Of a DNA stretch of 46,264 nucleotides, positions 23,881 through 43,003 are shown in pieces. This stretch comes from an uncultured Candidatus Saccharibacteria bacterium. GTDB lineage: Bacteria > Patescibacteriota > WWE3 > UBA101185 > UBA10185. Position 1 is the first letter of the stretch. Every line of letters starts with the position of its first letter. The translations under genes and the position numbers were made by a program. The stretch covers positions 1 to 46,264 of the forward strand of contig CAZSDQ010000003.1 of assembly GCA_964605725.1 (NCBI GenBank). Direction: 5' to 3'. The notes under the pieces were generated by a model. The model did no database searches. It was not told where the DNA came from and worked only from the letters and a program-made list of their open reading frames with translations.

Positions 23881-26739
23881 ATGTCGTTTAAATTACCTGA
23901 TAAAAAGCAAATACCCGAAATGGAAGACGAGATATTATCTTATTGGAAAAAAAACAATATTTTTAAGAAATCTGTAGAGAAAAATTCTGAAGATAATTTG
24001 TATGTTTTTTATGATGGTCCTCCTTTTATTTCAGGTCTTCCTCATTACGGACATTTACTTGTATCTATCGCTAAAGATGTAATTCCTAGATTTTGGACTA
24101 TGAAAGGAAAAAGAGTTGAGAGGGTTTGGGGTTGGGATGCTCATGGTTTAACTGTTGAAAATAGGGTACAGGAGGAGCTAGGAATTGAAAATAGAAGGGA
24201 TATTGAAAGTTATGGATTAGAAAAGTTTACCCAAGTTTGTTACGAGTACACTTCAAAAATCTCAGCAGAGTGGGAATGGTATGTAGATAAGATTGGGAGA
24301 TGGGTTGATTTTAAAAATGCTTATAGAACAACTGACCAAAAGTACATGGAAAGCGTTATGTGGGCTTTTAAACAAATTTATGAAAAGGGTTTGATTTATG
24401 AAGGTACCAGAACTTCATTATTTTGCCCTACTTGCGGTACACCTGTTTCAGATTTTGAGATTGCAATGGATAATTCTTATAGAGAAGAAAATGATCTTTC
24501 CATAACAGTGAGATTCAGAGTTATAACGGAAGGAGATTTTAAAGATTATTATCTTTTGGCTTGGACAACTACTCCGTGGACACTTCCTTCAAACCGAGCT
24601 TTAGTGGTGGACGACCAGGAAACATACGTTTCCGTACAATTTGAAAACAATACTTATATTTTAGCCAAAAAAAGATTAGATTTTGTTTTTTCAGATAAAA
24701 ATTATGAAATAAAAGAAGAGTTTTTAGGAAAAGAAATTATAGGGCTCGAGTACGAGCCCCTGTTTACCTTTTACGCCTCAAAAGAAGGGGAATTTAAGGT
24801 TTATTCCTATGAAGGTATGGTAACTATGGAAGAGGGTACAGGGGTAGTTCATAGCGCTCCCGGTTTTGGCGAAGTAGATACTGAGATGGGTAAGCATTTC
24901 AACTTGACTTTAATGATGACCTTGGATGATGAAGGTAAGATGTTACCCGGAAATCAAGATGCAAATCCTTACGAAGGGATGTTTTACCTAAAAGCTAATG
25001 CAATCATTTTAAATGATTTAGTAGAAAGAGGAGTGATATTTAAAAATGAAAAAACCACTCACAGAGTTCCTTATCATGACAGATGCAATACTCTTCTTGT
25101 TCAAAAAGCACAAAACTCTTGGTTTATTGATATTCAAAAAATTAAAGGTGAGTTAATAAAAAATAATGAAGATATTAATTGGGTACCCGAATACGTGAAG
25201 CATGGAATTTTTGAAAAAACTATCGAGCAGGCACCTGATTGGTGTATTTCCAGAAACAGGTTTTGGGCAACACCGATGCCAGTATGGGAATCAAAAGATG
25301 GGGATAGGTTAGTTTTTTCTTCAATAAAAGAAATTGAGGAAGCTTCAGGACAAAAAGTTAAAGATTTACACCGCCCCTATATTGACGAAATAGTTATAAA
25401 TAAAAACGGTAAAGAATACAGAAGAAGACCTGAAGTTTTGGATTCTTGGATGGAGGCGGGGTCAATGTCTTTTGCACAGCTTCACTATCCTTTTGAAAAT
25501 AGAGAAAAATTTGAGAAAAATTATCCCGGAGATTATATTGTGGAGTATAAGGGGCAGGTAAGAGCGTGGTTCCAGAGGATGCATATTATTTCAACACTTA
25601 TTTTTAATTCCAGATGTTTTAATAATGTCGTTGTGACCGGAGTTATGGCTGGTACCGACGGCAGAAAGATGAGTAAAACTTATAAAAATTACCCGGATCC
25701 GAGGGGAATAATGGAAAAATACGGAGGAGATGCTTTAAGACTCTATTTTATGGGCTCTTCATTAATGTCTGGTGAAAATACTAATTTTGACGAAACAGAG
25801 TTAAAAAACAAGCAAAGAAATATCCTAAATCCTCTATGGAATTCAGCAGTTTATTTCTTAATGTATGCTCAAAGTAATAACTGGAGCTCTGAAAATAAAG
25901 TAATATCTAGTAACGTACTTGATAAATGGATTATCATAAGACTAAATCAAACAATATCCGATATAGATAAATTTTTAAAACTGTACAATGTTCCTCCGGC
26001 GGTGAAATCTTTAGAAGGTTTTATTGATGATCTATCAAGATGGTACGTTCGCAGATCTAGAGATAGGATTTCTTCAGGGGATAACGAAGCTTTATCAACT
26101 TTATATACAGTTCTTTTAGAATTTTCAAAAGCTTCGGCTCCTTTGATTCCTTTTATATCGGAAAATATATACAGAACACTTCAAGAAGAAAATTTAGATG
26201 AAAAATCAGTCCATCTTTGTGACTATCCCGTTTTTAATAATGATTTAACGGACGAATCTCAGAAAATACTGATAAATATGAAAAAAACCAGAGATATCGT
26301 ATCCCAGGTATTGTCTGTAAGAGTTGAAAAAGCTATTCCGGTGAGACAAGTGCTAAGTTCTTCAGCAATTTTAAAAGAAAATGATGTCCCGGAAGAATAT
26401 AAGAAGTTGATATTAGAAGAAACAAATATAAAAAATATTGAAGTAGTAGATTCTCTTGATGAGAAACCGATGTGGGAAACCGATCTTACGAACTCAATTA
26501 AACTTAATATAGAAATAACAGAGGATTTACTAAAAGAAGGAAAGGCAAGAGAGTTCATAAGAAACGTCCAAGATATTAGAAAGGAAATGGGGTTGCAGAT
26601 TTCCGATGAAATTGTTTTAACTTACCAAGATAGTTCGGATATGAGTGAGATAATCTCTCTTTACGGAGACGAAATTAAAAATAAACTATTGGCAAAAGAA
26701 ATAATTCCCGGTGAAGAAATCAAGGTAGAAAAGTTATAA
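23881..26739 (+). CDS. ileS: Isoleucine--tRNA ligase, type 2 (IleRS2)
   Basis: DGPP...PHYGH, WTTTPWT, WCISRNR, KMSKT; C-terminal EG.ARE.IR.VQ..RK domain rather than a zinc finger. Confidence 0.96.
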   Translation: MSFKLPDKKQIPEMEDEILSYWKKNNIFKKSVEKNSEDNLYVFYDGPPFISGLPHYGHLLVSIAKDVIPRFWTMKGKRVERVWGWDAHGLTVENRVQEELGIENRRDIESYGLEKFTQVCYEYTSKISAEWEWYVDKIGRWVDFKNAYRTTDQKYMESVMWAFKQIYEKGLIYEGTRTSLFCPTCGTPVSDFEIAMDNSYREENDLSITVRFRVITEGDFKDYYLLAWTTTPWTLPSNRALVVDDQETYVSVQFENNTYILAKKRLDFVFSDKNYEIKEEFLGKEIIGLEYEPLFTFYASKEGEFKVYSYEGMVTMEEGTGVVHSAPGFGEVDTEMGKHFNLTLMMTLDDEGKMLPGNQDANPYEGMFYLKANAIILNDLVERGVIFKNEKTTHRVPYHDRCNTLLVQKAQNSWFIDIQKIKGELIKNNEDINWVPEYVKHGIFEKTIEQAPDWCISRNRFWATPMPVWESKDGDRLVFSSIKEIEEASGQKVKDLHRPYIDEIVINKNGKEYRRRPEVLDSWMEAGSMSFAQLHYPFENREKFEKNYPGDYIVEYKGQVRAWFQRMHIISTLIFNSRCFNNVVVTGVMAGTDGRKMSKTYKNYPDPRGIMEKYGGDALRLYFMGSSLMSGENTNFDETELKNKQRNILNPLWNSAVYFLMYAQSNNWSSENKVISSNVLDKWIIIRLNQTISDIDKFLKLYNVPPAVKSLEGFIDDLSRWYVRRSRDRISSGDNEALSTLYTVLLEFSKASAPLIPFISENIYRTLQEENLDEKSVHLCDYPVFNNDLTDESQKILINMKKTRDIVSQVLSVRVEKAIPVRQVLSSSAILKENDVPEEYKKLILEETNIKNIEVVDSLDEKPMWETDLTNSIKLNIEITEDLLKEGKAREFIRNVQDIRKEMGLQISDEIVLTYQDSSDMSEIISLYGDEIKNKLLAKEIIPGEEIKVEKL

Positions 26740-29613: not shown

Positions 29614-29690
29614 GGGCTCGTAGCTCAGTCGGTTAGAGCGTTGCATTCACATTGCAAAGGTCTCAGGTTCGAATCCTGACGGGCCCACCA
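29614..29690 (+). tRNA. tRNA-Val(CAC)
   Basis: GGGCTCG/CGGGCCC acceptor, GCTC/GAGC D stem, TTGCA/TGCAA stem with loop TT-CAC-AT, TCAGG-TTCGAAT-CCTGA T arm, A73 and encoded CCA. Confidence 0.96.
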
Positions 29691-29925
29691 ATTAACGATT
29701 TGAGCTAAAGAAAGGATTCGAATGCCGCAACCGCGACGGCGGTGAGGCGGGGTCGACTGGCGCATCAGCAGATGCGAACAGGTGACCGAATCCTGACGGG
29801 CCCACCAATTAACGATTTGAGCTAAAGAAAGGATTCGAATGCCGCAACCGCGACGGCGGTGAGGCGGGGTCGACTGGCGCATCAGCAGATGCGAACAGGT
29901 GACCGAATCCTGACGGGCCCACCAA
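29671..29925 (+). repeat. Tandem 117-bp repeat (about 2.2 copies): last 20 nt of tRNA-Val plus a 97-nt GC-rich structured spacer
   Basis: GAATCCTGACGGGCCCACCA at 29671, 29788 and 29905; the two 97-nt spacers are identical. Confidence 0.95.
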
Positions 29926-37536: not shown

Positions 37537-38245
37537 CCTTTAATTCTTTAGTCGATTTATTTCCTGCAATGTCGACTACTTCGATTTTAATTTCTACATC
37601 TCCTTCGGATGCGGATATAAAGTAACTGAAGGATAGGTCTGACTTTTGAATTGCAGTTTTTTCGTTTATTGTAATTGTAGCTTTTTCGTCAATTTTTCCT
37701 TCTATCTCTATTCTCTTGTCTAAGTTTTTGACTGTATCCCCGTCCTTTGGTTTTTCTATTGTTATTTTTGGAGCGTCCTTATCATAGTTAATAATTAAAA
37801 ATTCTGAACTTTCGCTTTCATTTCCTTTATCATCGTAAGATTTAGCAAAGATTGTGTTTGTTCCAACATTTAGGTTTATATCGCTGAAGGTAAATATTCC
37901 GTCATTCCCGGCCGTTGTGGAACCTTTTTCAGGACCGTTGACAAATATTTTTATGAAAGATCCCGGCAATGCTCTACCGGTAAGAGTTACTGACTCTTTA
38001 TTTATAGCTTTAGGTGCATCTATGAATACCGGGGGTATTGGTTTAGGAGTTGGGACATACCCTGGATCATTTCTATATTTTGAAAAGTATCCAAATAAAG
38101 AACCTACCTGTGGTGCAAATAAAAAAAGACTTAAGATTCCTATAATAACGATACTCCATATTCCCAACATCCTTTTTCTAAGTCTGTCTCTTAGTTCTTT
38201 TTCTGATATTCTTTTCTGCTGAATCCCTGAACTTGCTGCTGTCAT
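37514..38245 (-). CDS. Single-TM protein with two bacterial Ig-like domains
   Basis: TM then VTLTGRALPGS.IKIFVNG...G.FTF...L..G.NTI and DKDAPKITIEKPKDG...DIAGN. Confidence 0.7.
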   Translation of the reverse strand: MTAASSGIQQKRISEKELRDRLRKRMLGIWSIVIIGILSLFLFAPQVGSLFGYFSKYRNDPGYVPTPKPIPPVFIDAPKAINKESVTLTGRALPGSFIKIFVNGPEKGSTTAGNDGIFTFSDINLNVGTNTIFAKSYDDKGNESESSEFLIINYDKDAPKITIEKPKDGDTVKNLDKRIEIEGKIDEKATITINEKTAIQKSDLSFSYFISASEGDVEIKIEVVDIAGNKSTKELKVKYVKGQ

Positions 38246-38256
38246 AAAAATATAAT

Positions 38257-38278
38257 ATCACAATAATGTGATTGTGAT
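38257..38278. promoter_or_regulatory. Inverted repeat between galU and the Ig-domain gene (terminator or operator)
   Basis: ATCACAAT-N6-ATTGTGAT, overlapping the extended -10 of the downstream gene. Confidence 0.35.
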
Positions 38279-38281
38279 TTT

Positions 38282-39160
38282 TTAAATAATTTCCTTTTTA
38301 ATAAATTCTGTTAAGTCTTTTTTAAGATCATCTCTTTTCATCGCAAATTTAAGTGTAGTCTGAATGAATCTTAAAGGATCCCCGGTAGTTAACCACTCCC
38401 CGTCGATTGGTTGGGCAATAACTTTGTCTCCTCTTTGAGCAATGTTGTTTATTATGTCTGTTAGCCAGAGTTCGTTTCCTTTTCCAAGCTGTCTTTTCTC
38501 TGCTTCCATTACAACGTCGTAAGAAAGTACAAATCTTCCAAATTGTGCCATGCGCGAGGGAGCTTTTTCCATAGCTGGTTTTTCAACAATACTTTCAATT
38601 TCGTATTTATAAGGAACATTGGTTTTATAAGTTACAACTCCGTATTTTGAGACTTCCCATAACGGTACTTCTTGAACTGCAAGTATTGCCTTGGGATTTT
38701 GTTCTTTATAAACATCTATTAACTGTTGAGTCACCGGTTTATCCGCCAAGGTCATATCATCTCCGAACATGTATACAAAACTTTCATCTTTGTTTAAATA
38801 TTTTTTTGCGGCGAGGATAGGGGAGCCATTTCCGTAGGGAAGTGATTTATCTTGTGGTTTAAACCTAATTTTTGCCATTTTTGAAATGCTTTTTATTGTT
38901 TCTGCCAGTTCTGTTTTTCCTGTGTTTTTTAAAGTATCTTCAAGTTTTTTATTTCTTGAAAAGTAGTCATTGAAAGTTTTAAAACCCGGTCGGGTAATTA
39001 TGATTATTTCTTTAATTCCGGAATCGACAAGTTCTTTAACCAAATAATGGATAATGGGAGCATCTATGATTGGCAGCATTTCTTTAGGAACACTTTTTGT
39101 TGCTGGGAGAAATCTAGTACCTAGTCCTGCTGCTGCGATTATAGCTTTTTTAATTTTCAT
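38282..39160 (-). CDS. galU: UTP--glucose-1-phosphate uridylyltransferase
   Basis: KAIIAAAGLGTRFLPATKSVPKEMLP, GNGSPI, FGDD, IVEKP, GELWLTD. Confidence 0.9.
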   Translation of the reverse strand: MKIKKAIIAAAGLGTRFLPATKSVPKEMLPIIDAPIIHYLVKELVDSGIKEIIIITRPGFKTFNDYFSRNKKLEDTLKNTGKTELAETIKSISKMAKIRFKPQDKSLPYGNGSPILAAKKYLNKDESFVYMFGDDMTLADKPVTQQLIDVYKEQNPKAILAVQEVPLWEVSKYGVVTYKTNVPYKYEIESIVEKPAMEKAPSRMAQFGRFVLSYDVVMEAEKRQLGKGNELWLTDIINNIAQRGDKVIAQPIDGEWLTTGDPLRFIQTTLKFAMKRDDLKKDLTEFIKKEII

Positions 39161-39216
39161 AGGATTATTTTATCAGATTTGGGTGTAAAGTTTTGGGAAA
39201 AATAAATTCGAGGTTT

Positions 39217-39257
39217 AAAAAATGAGGGGTAGTTAAAAAAAGCTTTTAAGCTACCCC
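39217..39257 (-). terminator. Intrinsic terminator
   Basis: Minus strand GGGGTAG...CTACCCC stem followed by TCATTTTTT, just after the 39266 stop. Confidence 0.55.
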
Positions 39258-39265
39258 GTGAGTGA

Positions 39266-39445
39266 TTAGAAAATTGCAATTAACAATACAACTAACACGA
39301 GCAGAATTCCGAAAATAAGAGCATAGACTAACATCGTGCTTTCCCCTGGAAGAGAATCCGGCTTGATCTTCCGTTCTTTTTCCTCTAACTCATAATCAAT
39401 TTTTGCGTATTCTTCGTCAGAACAATTACGAGCTGTGTTTAACAT
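39266..39445 (-). CDS. 59-aa small protein with a C-terminal TM helix
   Basis: AAGGAG Shine-Dalgarno 8 nt before ATG 39445 (MLNTARNC...), so this internal start is preferred to the track's 39529. Confidence 0.6.
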   Translation of the reverse strand: MLNTARNCSDEEYAKIDYELEEKERKIKPDSLPGESTMLVYALIFGILLVLVVLLIAIF

Positions 39446-39547
39446 TTTTCTCTCTCCTTTTGAATAATGGTTTTTAGCAATTATATCAAAAAAGAAGGCA
39501 ATCAGACTTGCGAAATTAGAAAATTTCATCTGACTGCCTTTGATTGG

Positions 39548-39754
39548 TTACCTTGGGTAGCCCTTTTTTGGGGTTGCCATTGGTTTCGGTTTATTGGCTT
39601 CAATTTCTTTTTTTTGAACAAACCCAATAAAAGCGCAAAAACCGATTCCGATTAATGGCCACCACCACCAACTGGTCTCAGTGGCGGACATAAAAATTAC
39701 TACGCAAACCAAAATACCAATCTCCCATCTTTGCAATCTTTCATTTTTTTTCAT
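39548..39754 (-). CDS. 68-aa two-TM small membrane protein
   Basis: GAGGAG Shine-Dalgarno before the ATG; two hydrophobic segments separated by WWWWP. Confidence 0.65.
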   Translation of the reverse strand: MKKNERLQRWEIGILVCVVIFMSATETSWWWWPLIGIGFCAFIGFVQKKEIEANKPKPMATPKKGYPR

Positions 39755-39877
39755 CTCTTCTCCTCTTTGAGATTAGTTTTTATTTTATTGTTATCATTAT
39801 ACCCTATAGTCATATATTTGTCCATAGGAATTAAGTTGAATATTTATAAGGGTTTGGGAATTGATATTTAGCTTTAT

Positions 39878-39919
39878 TGGAGCCGAAGGTGGGAATTGGG
39901 AACTCAGCCTAACGTTTAC
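39878..39919 (-). pseudogene. 3' half (42 nt) of a split tRNA-Thr, with a damaged T arm
   Basis: GTAA-ACGTT-AGGCT-GAGTTCCCAATTCCCAC-CTTCGGC-T-CCA; complementary to the 5' half at 40317-40349. Confidence 0.85.
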
Positions 39920-40149
39920 TATTTTGTTTCTAAAATAGATATTCTTTTATCGTGATTATCTATTTTTTCTTTGTTCATCTTATACATATCTCCGTAAAAA
40001 CCTATTGTATTTTCTAAAGAAATTAGTGATGCTGTGTGATTGTCTAGTTTTGAATAAACCTCGTTAAAATTTTCATTTGTTTCATTTCTGAAATCTCTGA
40101 ATTCTTTTTGAAGATTAATTATCAAACCTGATAAATTTTCATTAGGCAT
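39919..40149 (-). CDS. 76-aa coiled-coil hypothetical protein inside the split tRNA
   Basis: Open frame with heptad-like pattern; TAATAT 6 nt before the ATG; its TAG stop overlaps the first base of the tRNA 3' half. Confidence 0.7.
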   Translation of the reverse strand: MPNENLSGLIINLQKEFRDFRNETNENFNEVYSKLDNHTASLISLENTIGFYGDMYKMNKEKIDNHDKRISILETK

Positions 40150-40218
40150 GGTTGGATATTAGTTTATTTATTTTATAAAAACAAGATGGTATTTCTATTG
40201 ATAATAGAGGTAATGTGT

Positions 40219-40293
40219 TGGAGCCGGTGGTCAGAATCGAACTGACAACCTAACGCTTACGATGCGCTTGCTCTACCATTGAGCTACACCGGC
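40219..40293 (-). tRNA. tRNA-Thr(CGT)
   Basis: GCCGGTG/CACCGGC acceptor, GCTC/GAGC, AGCGC/GCGTT with loop AT-CGT-AA, GTCAG-TTCGATT-CTGAC, U73 and CCA. Confidence 0.95.
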
Positions 40294-40316
40294 AAAAGAT
40301 ACTGGCCGCAGCGTCT

Positions 40317-40349
40317 GATACGCTTGCTCTACCATTTAGCCACTTCGGC
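40317..40349 (-). pseudogene. 5' half (33 nt) of a split tRNA-Thr
   Basis: GCCGAAG-TG-GCTA-AATGGTA-GAGC-A-AGCGT-ATC; ends at anticodon position 34. Confidence 0.85.
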
Positions 40350-40416
40350 GTATAAAAATAAACTTTCGTTTAATATCTTACCTTGGCGATCAAAATAATT
40401 CTAAATTTATTAATAA

Positions 40417-40475
40417 GCTCAATCGCAAGGTTCTCGAGCGAAGCGAGATGGTTCTTCCCATTGAGCCACTATGGC
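40417..40475 (-). other. tRNA 5'-end fragment extended into a GC-rich hairpin element
   Basis: GCCATAG-TG-GCTCAATGG, then TCTCG-CTTCGCT-CGAGA, closed by ATTGAGC pairing with GCTCAAT. Confidence 0.7.
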
Positions 40476-40515
40476 AGATAAAATTTCGACTATTAAAACC
40501 TAATATATCTTTATT

Positions 40516-41172
40516 TTAATACTCAACCTCGTAATTATTACGTATTTTACTATATTCGCAAAACTTACACGAAGGGTTCATTTCAGGAACAGGTCCTTCC
40601 AACAGATCATCAACTTCTTTAATAAACTTGAAAAAAGTATCTTCGTCTGTAGGAATTTCCATCCACTTTGGAGGGAAATTAACCCTGGAAGTTTCATCCA
40701 TAAAATCAACATTTTCAGGATAGAAAATAAGTAGCCCCATTTTTGTAATCTTTATAGGTGTACTCGAAACAGGGTTTTCAAGTGCAAATTTATATGAAAA
40801 CAGCTGGGTCTTGTATTTTTCAATTTTCTCTTCTGATGGCAGTGATATTTTAAGGTCGACGAGAGTATAGGTACCATCAGGATTTTTACATAAAAGGTCG
40901 TATTTACCTTTTATATAGCAAGACGTATTTGGAATAGTTTTTGATTCCACAAATATTTCTTGATTAACCACAGTACAATCAGGTAAATCCACAGAGAGCG
41001 TTATTAAATTTTTCCCTATTAATTTTGTTTGAACCATTGAATTTAAAGTTGTAAAAACACCCGGGAATGGGGTAGATGGTCTTGGGATATTTTCTTTTAC
41101 CTTCAAGTAAAAACAGCGTTTACATTCTTCGTATAAATACGCAAAATCAGAAGGTGATAATTTATAATTCAT
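40516..41172 (-). CDS. PD-(D/E)XK nuclease superfamily protein (Cas4/RecB-like, stand-alone)
   Basis: LSPS...ECKRC, KGKYDLL, LVDLK, C-terminal CKFC. Confidence 0.8.
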   Translation of the reverse strand: MNYKLSPSDFAYLYEECKRCFYLKVKENIPRPSTPFPGVFTTLNSMVQTKLIGKNLITLSVDLPDCTVVNQEIFVESKTIPNTSCYIKGKYDLLCKNPDGTYTLVDLKISLPSEEKIEKYKTQLFSYKFALENPVSSTPIKITKMGLLIFYPENVDFMDETSRVNFPPKWMEIPTDEDTFFKFIKEVDDLLEGPVPEMNPSCKFCEYSKIRNNYEVEY

Positions 41173-41246
41173 ATCTTATTTTAACACTGAAAATTTAAAA
41201 TATCCTTTATTTTTCGGAAAATTATTAATTAATGTAGAATATAAAT

Positions 41247-41837
41247 ATGAAAAATACATTACCTGAATTAAATTATAATTTCGATTCTCTAGAACCCTAT
41301 TTGGATACAAAAACTATTGAGATACACTACTTAAAACATCATCAAAATTATTTAAATAAACTTATAGAGGCTTTGGACAAACACCCAGAGCTTAGTGAGA
41401 TCTCTCTTGAGGATATGCTAAGTGACTTGAATAGTGTTCCTGAAGATATAAGGACAGCTGTAAAAAACAACGGAGGTGGTCATTTTAACCATTCTTTTTA
41501 TTGGTCAATTATGAATCCTAATCCAAAAAAATTACCTTCGGGTGAACTTTTAGCTAAAATAGGTGATTTTGAGAAATTTAAAAAAGATTTTACAGATAAA
41601 GCATTGGGTTTGTTCGGAAGTGGTTGGGTTTGGTTGGTTTTAAATGAACAGGGGGATTTAGAAATATTGCAGACTAGCAATCAAGATTGTCCTTTAAGTA
41701 TGGGAAAAAAGCCACTTTTAACAATTGATCTTTGGGAGCATGCTTATTATCTCAAATATCAAAATAGAAGATCGGAGTATATTGAGGCGTGGTGGAATTT
41801 AGTTGATTGGGAAGCAGTAGAAAAATTATATCGCTAG
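41247..41837 (+). CDS. sodA: Superoxide dismutase, Fe/Mn family, Mn-type signature
   Basis: HYLKHH, NNGGGHFNHSFYW, FGSGWVWL, NQD, DLWEHAYY. Confidence 0.93.
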   Translation: MKNTLPELNYNFDSLEPYLDTKTIEIHYLKHHQNYLNKLIEALDKHPELSEISLEDMLSDLNSVPEDIRTAVKNNGGGHFNHSFYWSIMNPNPKKLPSGELLAKIGDFEKFKKDFTDKALGLFGSGWVWLVLNEQGDLEILQTSNQDCPLSMGKKPLLTIDLWEHAYYLKYQNRRSEYIEAWWNLVDWEAVEKLYR

Positions 41838-43003
41838 AGCCATGTAGCGACCGCGTCTTCTCCAATTTTTACTACAGTTTTTTCTGGTCCCATTAGATAG
41901 ATTTCGTTATTATAGAGAGAGCCTCCTTTGTATACATTTATAAGTTCCCATCCTGTGGCTATATCCTTGTTAGTTGTATAAACCCCTTTAACCTTTACTG
42001 TGTAAGGTACTAAGGCCTTTAATCTATCTGTTTCGGTTTTAATTTCACTTTCATATTCTGGGTAAGGTGTCCAAAGTTTGGTCTGTAAGTTATATTTTTC
42101 GTAGGTTGTTTTAATTTTGGATCCGTCAGAAAAGTTATCCCAGTCTTCAGGTTTATCTACATAGTCTTTTTGTATCACAACTTCCCCTTCTAGTATTTTA
42201 TTTGCAGAATAATCTTCAGTATCCGTTGGTAATAAAAATTCATCAAATATACAGTTTTCAATATTTCCCTTACGTACTCCTTTGGCATAGATTAATTGTC
42301 CTGGTCTTGGGGTAAGATTATTCAAAAATGAGTTTGTTAGAAATTCGTTGTTATTTAACCATAAGACGTCTCCTCCAAAAACACATCCACTATCTCTTCT
42401 TGTCTCAACAGAGTAGGTTCTATTAGACCCCATGATACTAGTCCCGCTTTCGACGATTACATATCTACCATCAGGAGACCATGAAATATTTCGTTGAGTG
42501 TCTTGACCAGCAGGAATATTAAATTCCTGATTTGTTTTCAAGTTATAAATATGAATATCTTTATCACATTTAGTTTGATCGCCTGTTAAAAGACAATTTT
42601 TAAGGTAAGCAATGTAATTTTTATCAGTAGAAGAAGCATAAGCACTTACTCCATCAATTAGTAGTTTTTTTTCTTTGTCTATTGGGCTAATTATGTAAAG
42701 TTTATTATCTTCCGTTAACATAAGAATTTTTGATTCAACAATTTCTCTTGGAACTTGTTCTTCTTTTCCATCACCATCAATATCGATACTTGAAAAAGGT
42801 TCTGAGGGTTGGTTTGAGGGGGATTTATTTTCTTCTACAGTTTGATAAGAAGGTATTTCTACAACTTCTTTCTTTTTGGAAATTAGTGAAAATATTATTA
42901 AAATAATTAAGGCTACTATTCCTAGTGTGGCAAGAACAAGATTTTTGTTAGGTGATTTTTTATAATTACCTTTCATTTCGCCGTTAATCTTTTCTTTATT
43001 CAT
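41834..43003 (-). CDS. Membrane-anchored beta-propeller-like (TolB/PD40-type) protein
   Basis: N-terminal TM, DIDGDGKE Ca-binding-like loop, ISWSPDGRY repeat. Confidence 0.55.
   Translation of the reverse strand: MNKEKINGEMKGNYKKSPNKNLVLATLGIVALIILIIFSLISKKKEVVEIPSYQTVEENKSPSNQPSEPFSSIDIDGDGKEEQVPREIVESKILMLTEDNKLYIISPIDKEKKLLIDGVSAYASSTDKNYIAYLKNCLLTGDQTKCDKDIHIYNLKTNQEFNIPAGQDTQRNISWSPDGRYVIVESGTSIMGSNRTYSVETRRDSGCVFGGDVLWLNNNEFLTNSFLNNLTPRPGQLIYAKGVRKGNIENCIFDEFLLPTDTEDYSANKILEGEVVIQKDYVDKPEDWDNFSDGSKIKTTYEKYNLQTKLWTPYPEYESEIKTETDRLKALVPYTVKVKGVYTTNKDIATGWELINVYKGGSLYNNEIYLMGPEKTVVKIGEDAVATWL

Follow-up and report, generated by a model that had tools for sequence, protein, structure and literature searches.

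What has happened to a tRNA-Thr gene whose working copy is preceded by the front ends of two other tRNA-Thr genes, one of them running into a hairpin that pairs back onto its own D arm? The window in which this arrangement lies is one whole 46-kb contig (46,264 nucleotides) from an uncultured bacterium of the WWE3 lineage; the source genome, designated G000, is a 726-kb assembly of 34% GC in 32 contigs. All genomes compared are metagenome bins, G009 has a contamination of 7%, and several copies of the hairpin module stop at contig ends. The tRNAs of G000 are of the ordinary bacterial type with encoded CCA.

Arrangement and history of the tRNA-Thr locus

All features of the locus lie on the minus strand and are given here in 5′ to 3′ order. 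Fragment 3 (40458..40475) is the displaced 5′ end, nt 1–18, of a tRNA-Thr of an older allele, and contains the acceptor strand, U8-G9, one strand of the D stem and the D loop as far as GG. It is followed by a 41-base hairpin module in its short form (hp1, 40417..40457) and by an AT-rich spacer of 67 nt (40350..40416) that leads from hp1 to the next tRNA start. This start belongs to fragment 2 (40315..40349), the 5′ half of a split tRNA-Thr(CGT) allele that begins with GCCGAAG and runs from nt 1 to nt 35, i.e. to the anticodon. A 21-base linker ending in a run of T (40294..40314), homologous in G009 and G001, joins this dead half to the working gene, an intact tRNA-Thr(CGT) with the start GCCGGTG and encoded CCA (40219..40293), which was called by ARAGORN and scored 67.1 bits against the Rfam tRNA model. 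Farther downstream lie an ORF of 76 aa (39919..40149), for which no family match was found, and the 3′ half of the split allele (39878..39918), which extends from the third anticodon base to CCA and carries the acceptor strand CTTCGGC that pairs with fragment 2.

The initial annotation had described an 18-base tRNA-Thr start plus hairpin running from 40475 to 40417 on the minus strand, a segment ATTGAGC complementary to GCTCAAT of the D arm, and GCC-starting 5′ ends in series at 40475, 40349 and 40293. The sequence is as described, the hairpin is the minimum-energy fold, and the three 5′ ends are real and represent three acceptor variants of tRNA-Thr(CGT). It had also failed to find a 3′ partner for fragment 3 nearby, and an end of the form CTATGGC-N-CCA is in fact absent throughout the 726-kb assembly. 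This absence and the lack of an ARAGORN or Rfam call on fragment 3 led us to reject a functional tRNA or a split half. A known RNA family was likewise discarded, as the scan of 38000–42500 gave no Rfam 15 match on 40417–40475 at E≤10.

Fragment 3 agrees with the start of the local intact tRNA-Thr in 14 of 18 bases and with its own orthologue in G009 in 16 of 18, and that orthologue is identical (18/18) to the intact tRNA-Thr(CGT) start of G004, G007, G008, G012 and G013. The acceptor variants of tRNA-Thr(CGT) in the genus are GCCAGAG, GCCGAAG and GCCGGTG, and each of them belongs to a working gene somewhere. Fragment 3 comes from the commonest of these variants, fragment 2 together with 39878–39918 makes up a second one that was split in the anticodon, and the working gene represents the third.

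G009 and G001 share this Thr architecture with other combinations of alleles, and even another genus has a 5′ half, a linker and the gene in series. Orthologues of fragment 2 were identified in G009, in G001 and in G017, a member of another genus; the D loop of this fragment is empty in G000 and G009 and contains a long-form element (see below) in G001. Between G000 and G009, hp1 of this locus is 98% identical, as compared with 72–81% for the flanks and 72% for the spacer. The initial annotation had taken the locus for a record of repeated insertion or replacement at one tRNA-Thr site. Replacement is borne out, as each of the three acceptor variants works in some sibling and the 3′ half of fragment 2 was located at 39878–39918. 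A simple layer-by-layer record is not, because the whole arrangement of fragment 3, hairpin, spacer, fragment 2, linker and tRNA is orthologous in G009, hence inherited and old; nor is the hairpin a by-product of this one site, since many genomes have hp1 conserved at tRNA genes for Asn, Gln, Gly, Arg and Ile too. In addition to serial replacement, tandem duplication of the leader plus the 5′ part contributes as well. The Thr locus does record gene replacements, yet it has been inherited and reshuffled.

The 3′ half of the split allele begins at the base right after the stop codon of the 76-aa ORF, so that the DNA splitting the older Thr gene carries both the working tRNA and this ORF. Homologues of the ORF are located upstream of tRNA-Thr in G007 and G008. 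On the other side of the locus, a stand-alone PD-(D/E)XK/Cas4-like protein of 218 aa is encoded at 40516–41172 on the minus strand and stops 40 bases ahead of fragment 3; no cas genes were found in the window. A link between this neighbor and hp1 was considered and rejected: the gene is syntenic in G009 but missing at other hp1 loci.

A conserved hairpin module behind tRNA starts

When the 371-base region was compared with relatives, only its hairpin part recurred many times, at 90–100% identity, in the same genome and in sibling genomes. G000 has three copies, namely the one described here, one upstream of tRNA-Asn (contig 2) and one upstream of tRNA-Gln(CTG) (contig 18); a 13-base word from the inner hairpin likewise occurs three times in the genome, each time after a copy of a tRNA start upstream of the Thr, Asn or Gln gene. 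A strict pattern matched 30 times, in 8 of the genus's 14 genomes, and a reversed control not once; over 134 genomes of the class the pattern added only three doubtful matches. A covariance model (R1) built from 24 copies, against which the module in the window scores 79.6 bits (E 1.7e-22) as the single copy there, detected 35 copies in the genus plus weaker matches in nine more genomes from eight other genera of the same family. A looser regular expression applied to the fetched loci recovered 34 copies.

All 34 copies lie directly after a copy of a tRNA start, which comprises about nt 1–18/20 or, in three cases, nt 1–7/9, so that the enrichment beside tRNA fragments that had been proposed as a check is all-or-none. 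An intact tRNA gene follows downstream on the same strand for 28 of the 28 copies whose locus stays within the contig. These genes specify Thr, Asn, Gln(CTG), Gln(TTG), Gly(CCC) and Arg(TCT), with Ile(TAT) in another genus. In 25 of the 28 the preceding fragment is the start of that same downstream gene; two fragments are too diverged for a judgment, and one is of a different Thr allele. Identity of the preceding start to the downstream gene extends over its whole length in 18 of 27 scorable copies, the rest, with this locus among them, agreeing at 11–16 of 19 positions. Near-identical stretches of about 30 bases, consisting of the inner hairpin and both boxes, also occur in other families of the class (L037, G060:C32; L039, G045:C2), with no tRNA gene within 500 bases.

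The module is built in the order of a conserved purine-rich 5′ box (AAGAACC), an inner hairpin (P2), a conserved 3′ box (CCTTGCGAT) and a closing strand. P2 is a 5-bp stem (40444–40448 with 40432–40436) with a 7-base loop (40437–40443). The closing strand and the bases before it pair back onto the D-arm copy of fragment 3 and form an outer helix (P1) in which 40454–40466 pairs with 40417–40429 over 13 positions, two of them fixed mismatches. The short form of the module occurs at Thr (here), at Asn and at both Gln loci; its last part is the closing strand, behind which an AT-rich spacer leads to the next tRNA start. These spacers measure 65–69 nt at all short-form loci, although the 17 distinct ones fall into mutually unalignable types; at the Asn locus alone, two unalignable types (55–58% identity) lie behind the same hp1. 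Behind a short-form module the interrupted tRNA was never seen to resume.

As RNA, the hp1 region folds at −17.0 kcal/mol (z −2.3, with 8 of 200 shuffles equally good), and as DNA at −9.6 (z −2.2), whereas the complementary strand folds no better than shuffles (z −0.7 and −0.4). Taken alone these statistics are modest; it is the recurrence over loci and genomes that rules out chance. In the 24-copy alignment, 90% of paired cells are compatible with pairing, as opposed to 85% in shuffles and 25–51% with the partners slid. Relative to the Thr and Asn copies (GCTCAAT with ATTGAGC), the Gln copies (GTCTAAT with ATTAGAC) have three outer-helix pairs changed on both sides. In the Gly copies the closing strand is still of the Thr/Asn type and two G-U pairs maintain the pairing, which indicates that the closing strand is part of the module and is not recopied from each target. 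A tally of the alignment by hand gave about 12 cells with G-U-type pairs versus about three with A-C-type mismatches. The loops of both hairpins (40437–40443 in the window, and the palindrome loops in relatives) read GCGAAGC on the complementary strand, a sequence known as an unusually stable DNA mini-hairpin. The idea that the complementary strand is the structured one was nevertheless dropped, because nearest-neighbor DNA folding prefers the tRNA-sense strand despite these loops.

Between species hp1 is on average 93% conserved and the spacer 71%, and hp1 is the better conserved of the two in 24 of 27 orthologous pairs, which are not independent of one another. Hence hp1 is not freely decaying DNA, and a role in cis in tRNA expression deserves consideration, whether as a leader hairpin or processing site of the pre-tRNA or as a duplex site for a regulator immediately upstream of the promoter. 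As one example, the hairpin could sequester the leftover tRNA start and keep it from competing in folding and in RNase P processing. This reading, the leading alternative to the one preferred below but in our view rather unlikely overall, accounts well for the excess of conservation and for the fact that invariant bases sit in the internal loops and boxes as well as in the stems. The inner 5+7+5 inverted repeat is operator-like, the distance to the tRNA start stays constant at the Thr, Asn and both Gln loci despite the differing spacers, and within the genus every hp1 is co-oriented with its tRNA gene at a fixed distance upstream. The co-orientation and fixed spacing, the better folding of the sense strand and the excess of G-U pairs, including those by which the Gly copies hold the outer helix, all fit a leader RNA or a control site upstream, and the doubly changed pairs of the Gln copies favor it too. 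Against it stands the constant tie to a tRNA fragment, which a regulator site does not need. There is also no need to invoke alternative 5′ processing, as RNase P RNA is present in G000; it matches the full-length model at 84 bits, which is below the family's cut-off of 100 bits. For the same reason a missing RNase P was rejected as the cause of the odd leaders.

Empty sites, long forms and possible mobility

The tRNA-Asn locus, which is recognizable by a conserved upstream gene, offers a direct comparison of sites with and without the module. In five siblings the promoter and leader run straight onto the gene; the filled genomes have this promoter and leader too, but directly before the outer copy of the tRNA start. 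It follows that hp1, the spacer and a second start were added and that the outer copy is the original start of the gene. In G001 and G002 the outer copy and half of the hairpin are deleted at this locus while the gene is intact, so the module is dispensable there. These deletions tell against a role in cis, as does the absence of hp1 from 6 of the 14 genomes, which have the same tRNA genes on plain promoters.

A long form of the module was identified at Gly, Arg and Ile genes and at the Thr locus of G001. Here the closing strand runs into a second long palindrome whose far end mimics a D loop (e.g. TCAATGG), and the tRNA resumes exactly at the interruption and continues to about position 31–38, where it breaks off. 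The segment that in the short form pairs with the D arm pairs in the long form with the element's own far end, and the two partners co-vary (ATTGA/TCAAT, ATAGA/TCTAT, ATCGA/TCGAT and TTTGA/TCAAA). In G001 one long-form variant is found twice, once in the D loop of Thr and once at position 8 of a tRNA-Arg copy. Flanking repeats are 3–7 nt at long forms and 18–30 nt at short forms, and the modules range in size from 41 to 75 nt. The long-form cases are discrete insertions present in several copies. The short form could have arisen by insertion with a long target duplication, by integration of a cassette, or by duplication followed by insertion. An RNA-mediated duplication starting exactly at the tRNA +1 or at the transcription start was ruled out, the left border varying from 0 to 13 nt upstream.

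In other genera the core of the module lies antisense inside the T loops of tRNA copies (28–39 bits with R1), for example in 3′-end copies downstream of tRNA-Cys and in the dead tRNA-Thr 3′ half of G017. At L110 (G102:C45, about 1430–1685) a near-complete tRNA-Glu copy with its T loop split by an antisense module lies about 47 bases upstream of an intact tRNA-Glu. G000 itself has two extra tRNA 3′-end copies downstream of tRNA-Pro(GGG) within bases 1–500 of contig 18, and between them are two tandem long palindromes, antisense to the tRNA. That the motif occurs both sense and antisense to transcription points to action at the level of DNA and fits a DNA element. Antisense cores in T loops, and arrays in loci without a nearby tRNA, are also difficult for a leader or control site. 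Tandem arrays have periods of 72 and 123–128 bases, the latter being those of short-form arrays.

In the window, two tandem units of 107 bases (29691–29904, plus strand) are found right behind tRNA-Val(CAC) (29614–29690); each closes with a copy of the tRNA's terminal ~21 bases, CCA included, and holds a GATTTGAGC word resembling that of the hairpin modules. They look like a 3′-side mirror of the 5′-side units. Tight clusters of short tRNA genes are present on contigs 7 (25391–25640) and 8 (2237–2467) of G000, with two ARAGORN calls that have 4-base and 2-base anticodons beside tRNA-Trp.

We tentatively favor, at slightly less than even confidence, the explanation that a small, non-autonomous element homes to the loops of tRNA genes and has hp1 as its conserved end. 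The modules form a family, are strictly positioned in tRNA pieces, have empty and filled sites, occur in both orientations and evolve slowly. At the Thr locus, 40458–40475 would be the original front of an earlier tRNA-Thr gene, stranded when about 125 bases were added in its D loop; the added DNA would consist of hp1 (40417–40457), the spacer of about 67 bases with a probable promoter, and a fresh copy of the tRNA start. Such elements would be palindromic, small and without coding capacity, moving as DNA with the help of a trans-acting enzyme and targeting the D loop in sense and the T loop in antisense orientation. Their survival would require that an entire tRNA gene be retained or rebuilt beside the interrupted piece. 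Pairing between the closing strand and the D-arm copy would follow from the complementarity of one element segment to the target's D stem and loop; such pairing may be part of the insertion, and in the long form this segment would pair instead with the element's own imitation of a D loop. This explanation draws support from the clean interruptions of dead 5′-half D loops by long forms at Gly, Arg, Ile and Thr, from the combination of a constant end with variable cargo, from the tandem arrays, and from the decayed or half-deleted copies in G001 and G002. Against it speak the higher conservation of hp1 than of the spacer, which is not what would be expected of dead selfish DNA, the uniform orientation and distance of the copies within the genus, and the better folding of the sense strand with its excess of G-U pairs.

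The same loci could have arisen without any mobile element, by local tandem duplication and template switching at quasi-palindromes, with gene conversion spreading hp1, although we regard this as improbable. Exact tandem units do exist, three at Gln in G009 and two 5′-half units at Arg in G008, the duplicated block often takes in 5–13 nt of leader, and the three clustered compensatory changes of the Gln copies are the expected signature of template-switch correction. However, the core between the arms, about 34 nt, has no relation to tRNA sequences and is identical at six tRNA species, the inner Asn spacer was not copied from the native leader, and the closing strand at Gly is of the Thr/Asn type and not a copy of its own D arm.

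The constant end and variable cargo also bring to mind integron attC sites, in which case hp1 would be a folded site by which a tyrosine recombinase docks small cassettes, composed of a promoter and a tRNA start, at the D arm, the latter acting as a naturally occurring mini-hairpin partner. The helix, with its fixed mismatches, is imperfect, and in the Thr/Asn as well as the Gln versions a comparison by eye matches the arms to the attC boxes RYYYAAC and GTTRRRY at 6 of 7 positions apiece. That likeness, however, is mostly a consequence of the D-arm sequence being universal; hp1 has a conserved center, which attC sites lack, and its cargo has no ORF. The recombinases are only XerC/D-like, the best integron-integrase score being 128.7 bits against a cut-off of 265. 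Accordingly, this relationship is very doubtful.

For the tRNA-loop-homing element, no mobilizing enzyme was found among the Y1 transposase, group-II-intron-like RT and Xer candidates. Mobilization of the IS200/IS605 type was rejected, since a Y1 transposase is present in only two of five carriers and the modules are absent from the Y1 loci. A free-standing RT of 342 aa lies 0.4–1.4 kb from hp1 loci at L126 (G011:C11, 1264–2292) and L125 (G009:C2). Eight of the genus's 14 genomes encode such an RT, with no correlation to hp1: the group-II-intron-like RT is present in four of eight carriers versus four of six non-carriers, and seven of nine RT loci have no tRNA nearby, so a link was discarded.

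A fuller version of the homing explanation is possible, though we would not call it probable. It holds that these modules make up an undescribed class of WWE3-type miniature elements homing to tRNA D and T loops, which may carry a promoter or spacer and the displaced gene end and so could overwrite one or the other end of an essential tRNA gene with no lethal effect. In this version hp1 would be the recombination end, the target would be recognized by base pairing with the D arm, and, together with the tRNA-inside-tRNA replacements seen here, the elements would amount to a self-contained, continuous turnover of tRNA genes.

Comparison with known systems

To our knowledge, the tRNA genes that are the classic landing sites of mobile DNA are always entered on the 3′ side, by elements that encode their own integrase. 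Here, modules of about 100 bases fill the first loop from either end of a tRNA piece, in genomes of 0.6–0.9 Mb. Mobile modules would represent a new safe way of invading an essential gene, by bringing along the displaced end and a promoter, and would call for an enzyme, acting in trans, that either reads tRNA-shaped DNA or pairs with its bases. Regulatory modules, in turn, would be a conserved leader or upstream element that is new for tRNA genes, and this in a major uncultured lineage. A literature search, which was not exhaustive, found no published description of such modules.

Rickettsia palindromic elements, REP/BIME sequences and MITEs resemble hp1 in being tens of bases long, non-coding, hairpin-forming and present in many copies, and in their presence or absence between relatives and occasional tandem arrangement; hp1 likewise is present or absent at orthologous sites and has discrete boundaries. 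Unlike those elements, hp1 is confined to the loops of tRNA pieces, with a duplicated tRNA end and a complete gene adjacent, and is found in both orientations at D and T loops. A short target duplication of fixed length was not observed, and there is neither a linked nor a cognate transposase. The integron parallel lacks its two hallmarks, an integron integrase and ORF cassettes in the units.

The D loop, where the hp1 junction lies, is said by Williams (in 2002) to be outside the usual crossover sublocations of tRNA genes. The att duplications of integrase islands and prophages, including tRNA-dependent lysogeny (PMC10865867), are similar to the hp1 loci in that a repeat of part of the tRNA brackets the added DNA and the essential tRNA is kept working, rebuilt or replaced. 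At hp1 loci, too, a repeated tRNA segment brackets the insert and the gene is intact. The repeat is, however, the 5′ end (nt 1–18) rather than the 3′ end, which makes it necessary to supply a promoter, and the added DNA is only about 107 bases long, without an ORF or an integrase.

The distal repeats of E. coli tyrT (rtT RNA) share with the hp1 loci the partial tRNA copies beside a gene and within its transcription unit, but they are 3′-end copies downstream of one operon in one species and have no hairpin module common to many tRNAs. Archaeal split and intron-bearing tRNA genes are comparable in having a tRNA interrupted in a loop, with 5′ and 3′ pieces apart. In contrast to these, fragment 3 has no 3′ partner, the pieces are truncated, a complete gene is adjacent, and the host is a bacterium with an ordinary RNase P RNA. 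The pieces linked to hp1 nevertheless look like tRNA halves and can cause tRNA genes to be wrongly annotated as "split".
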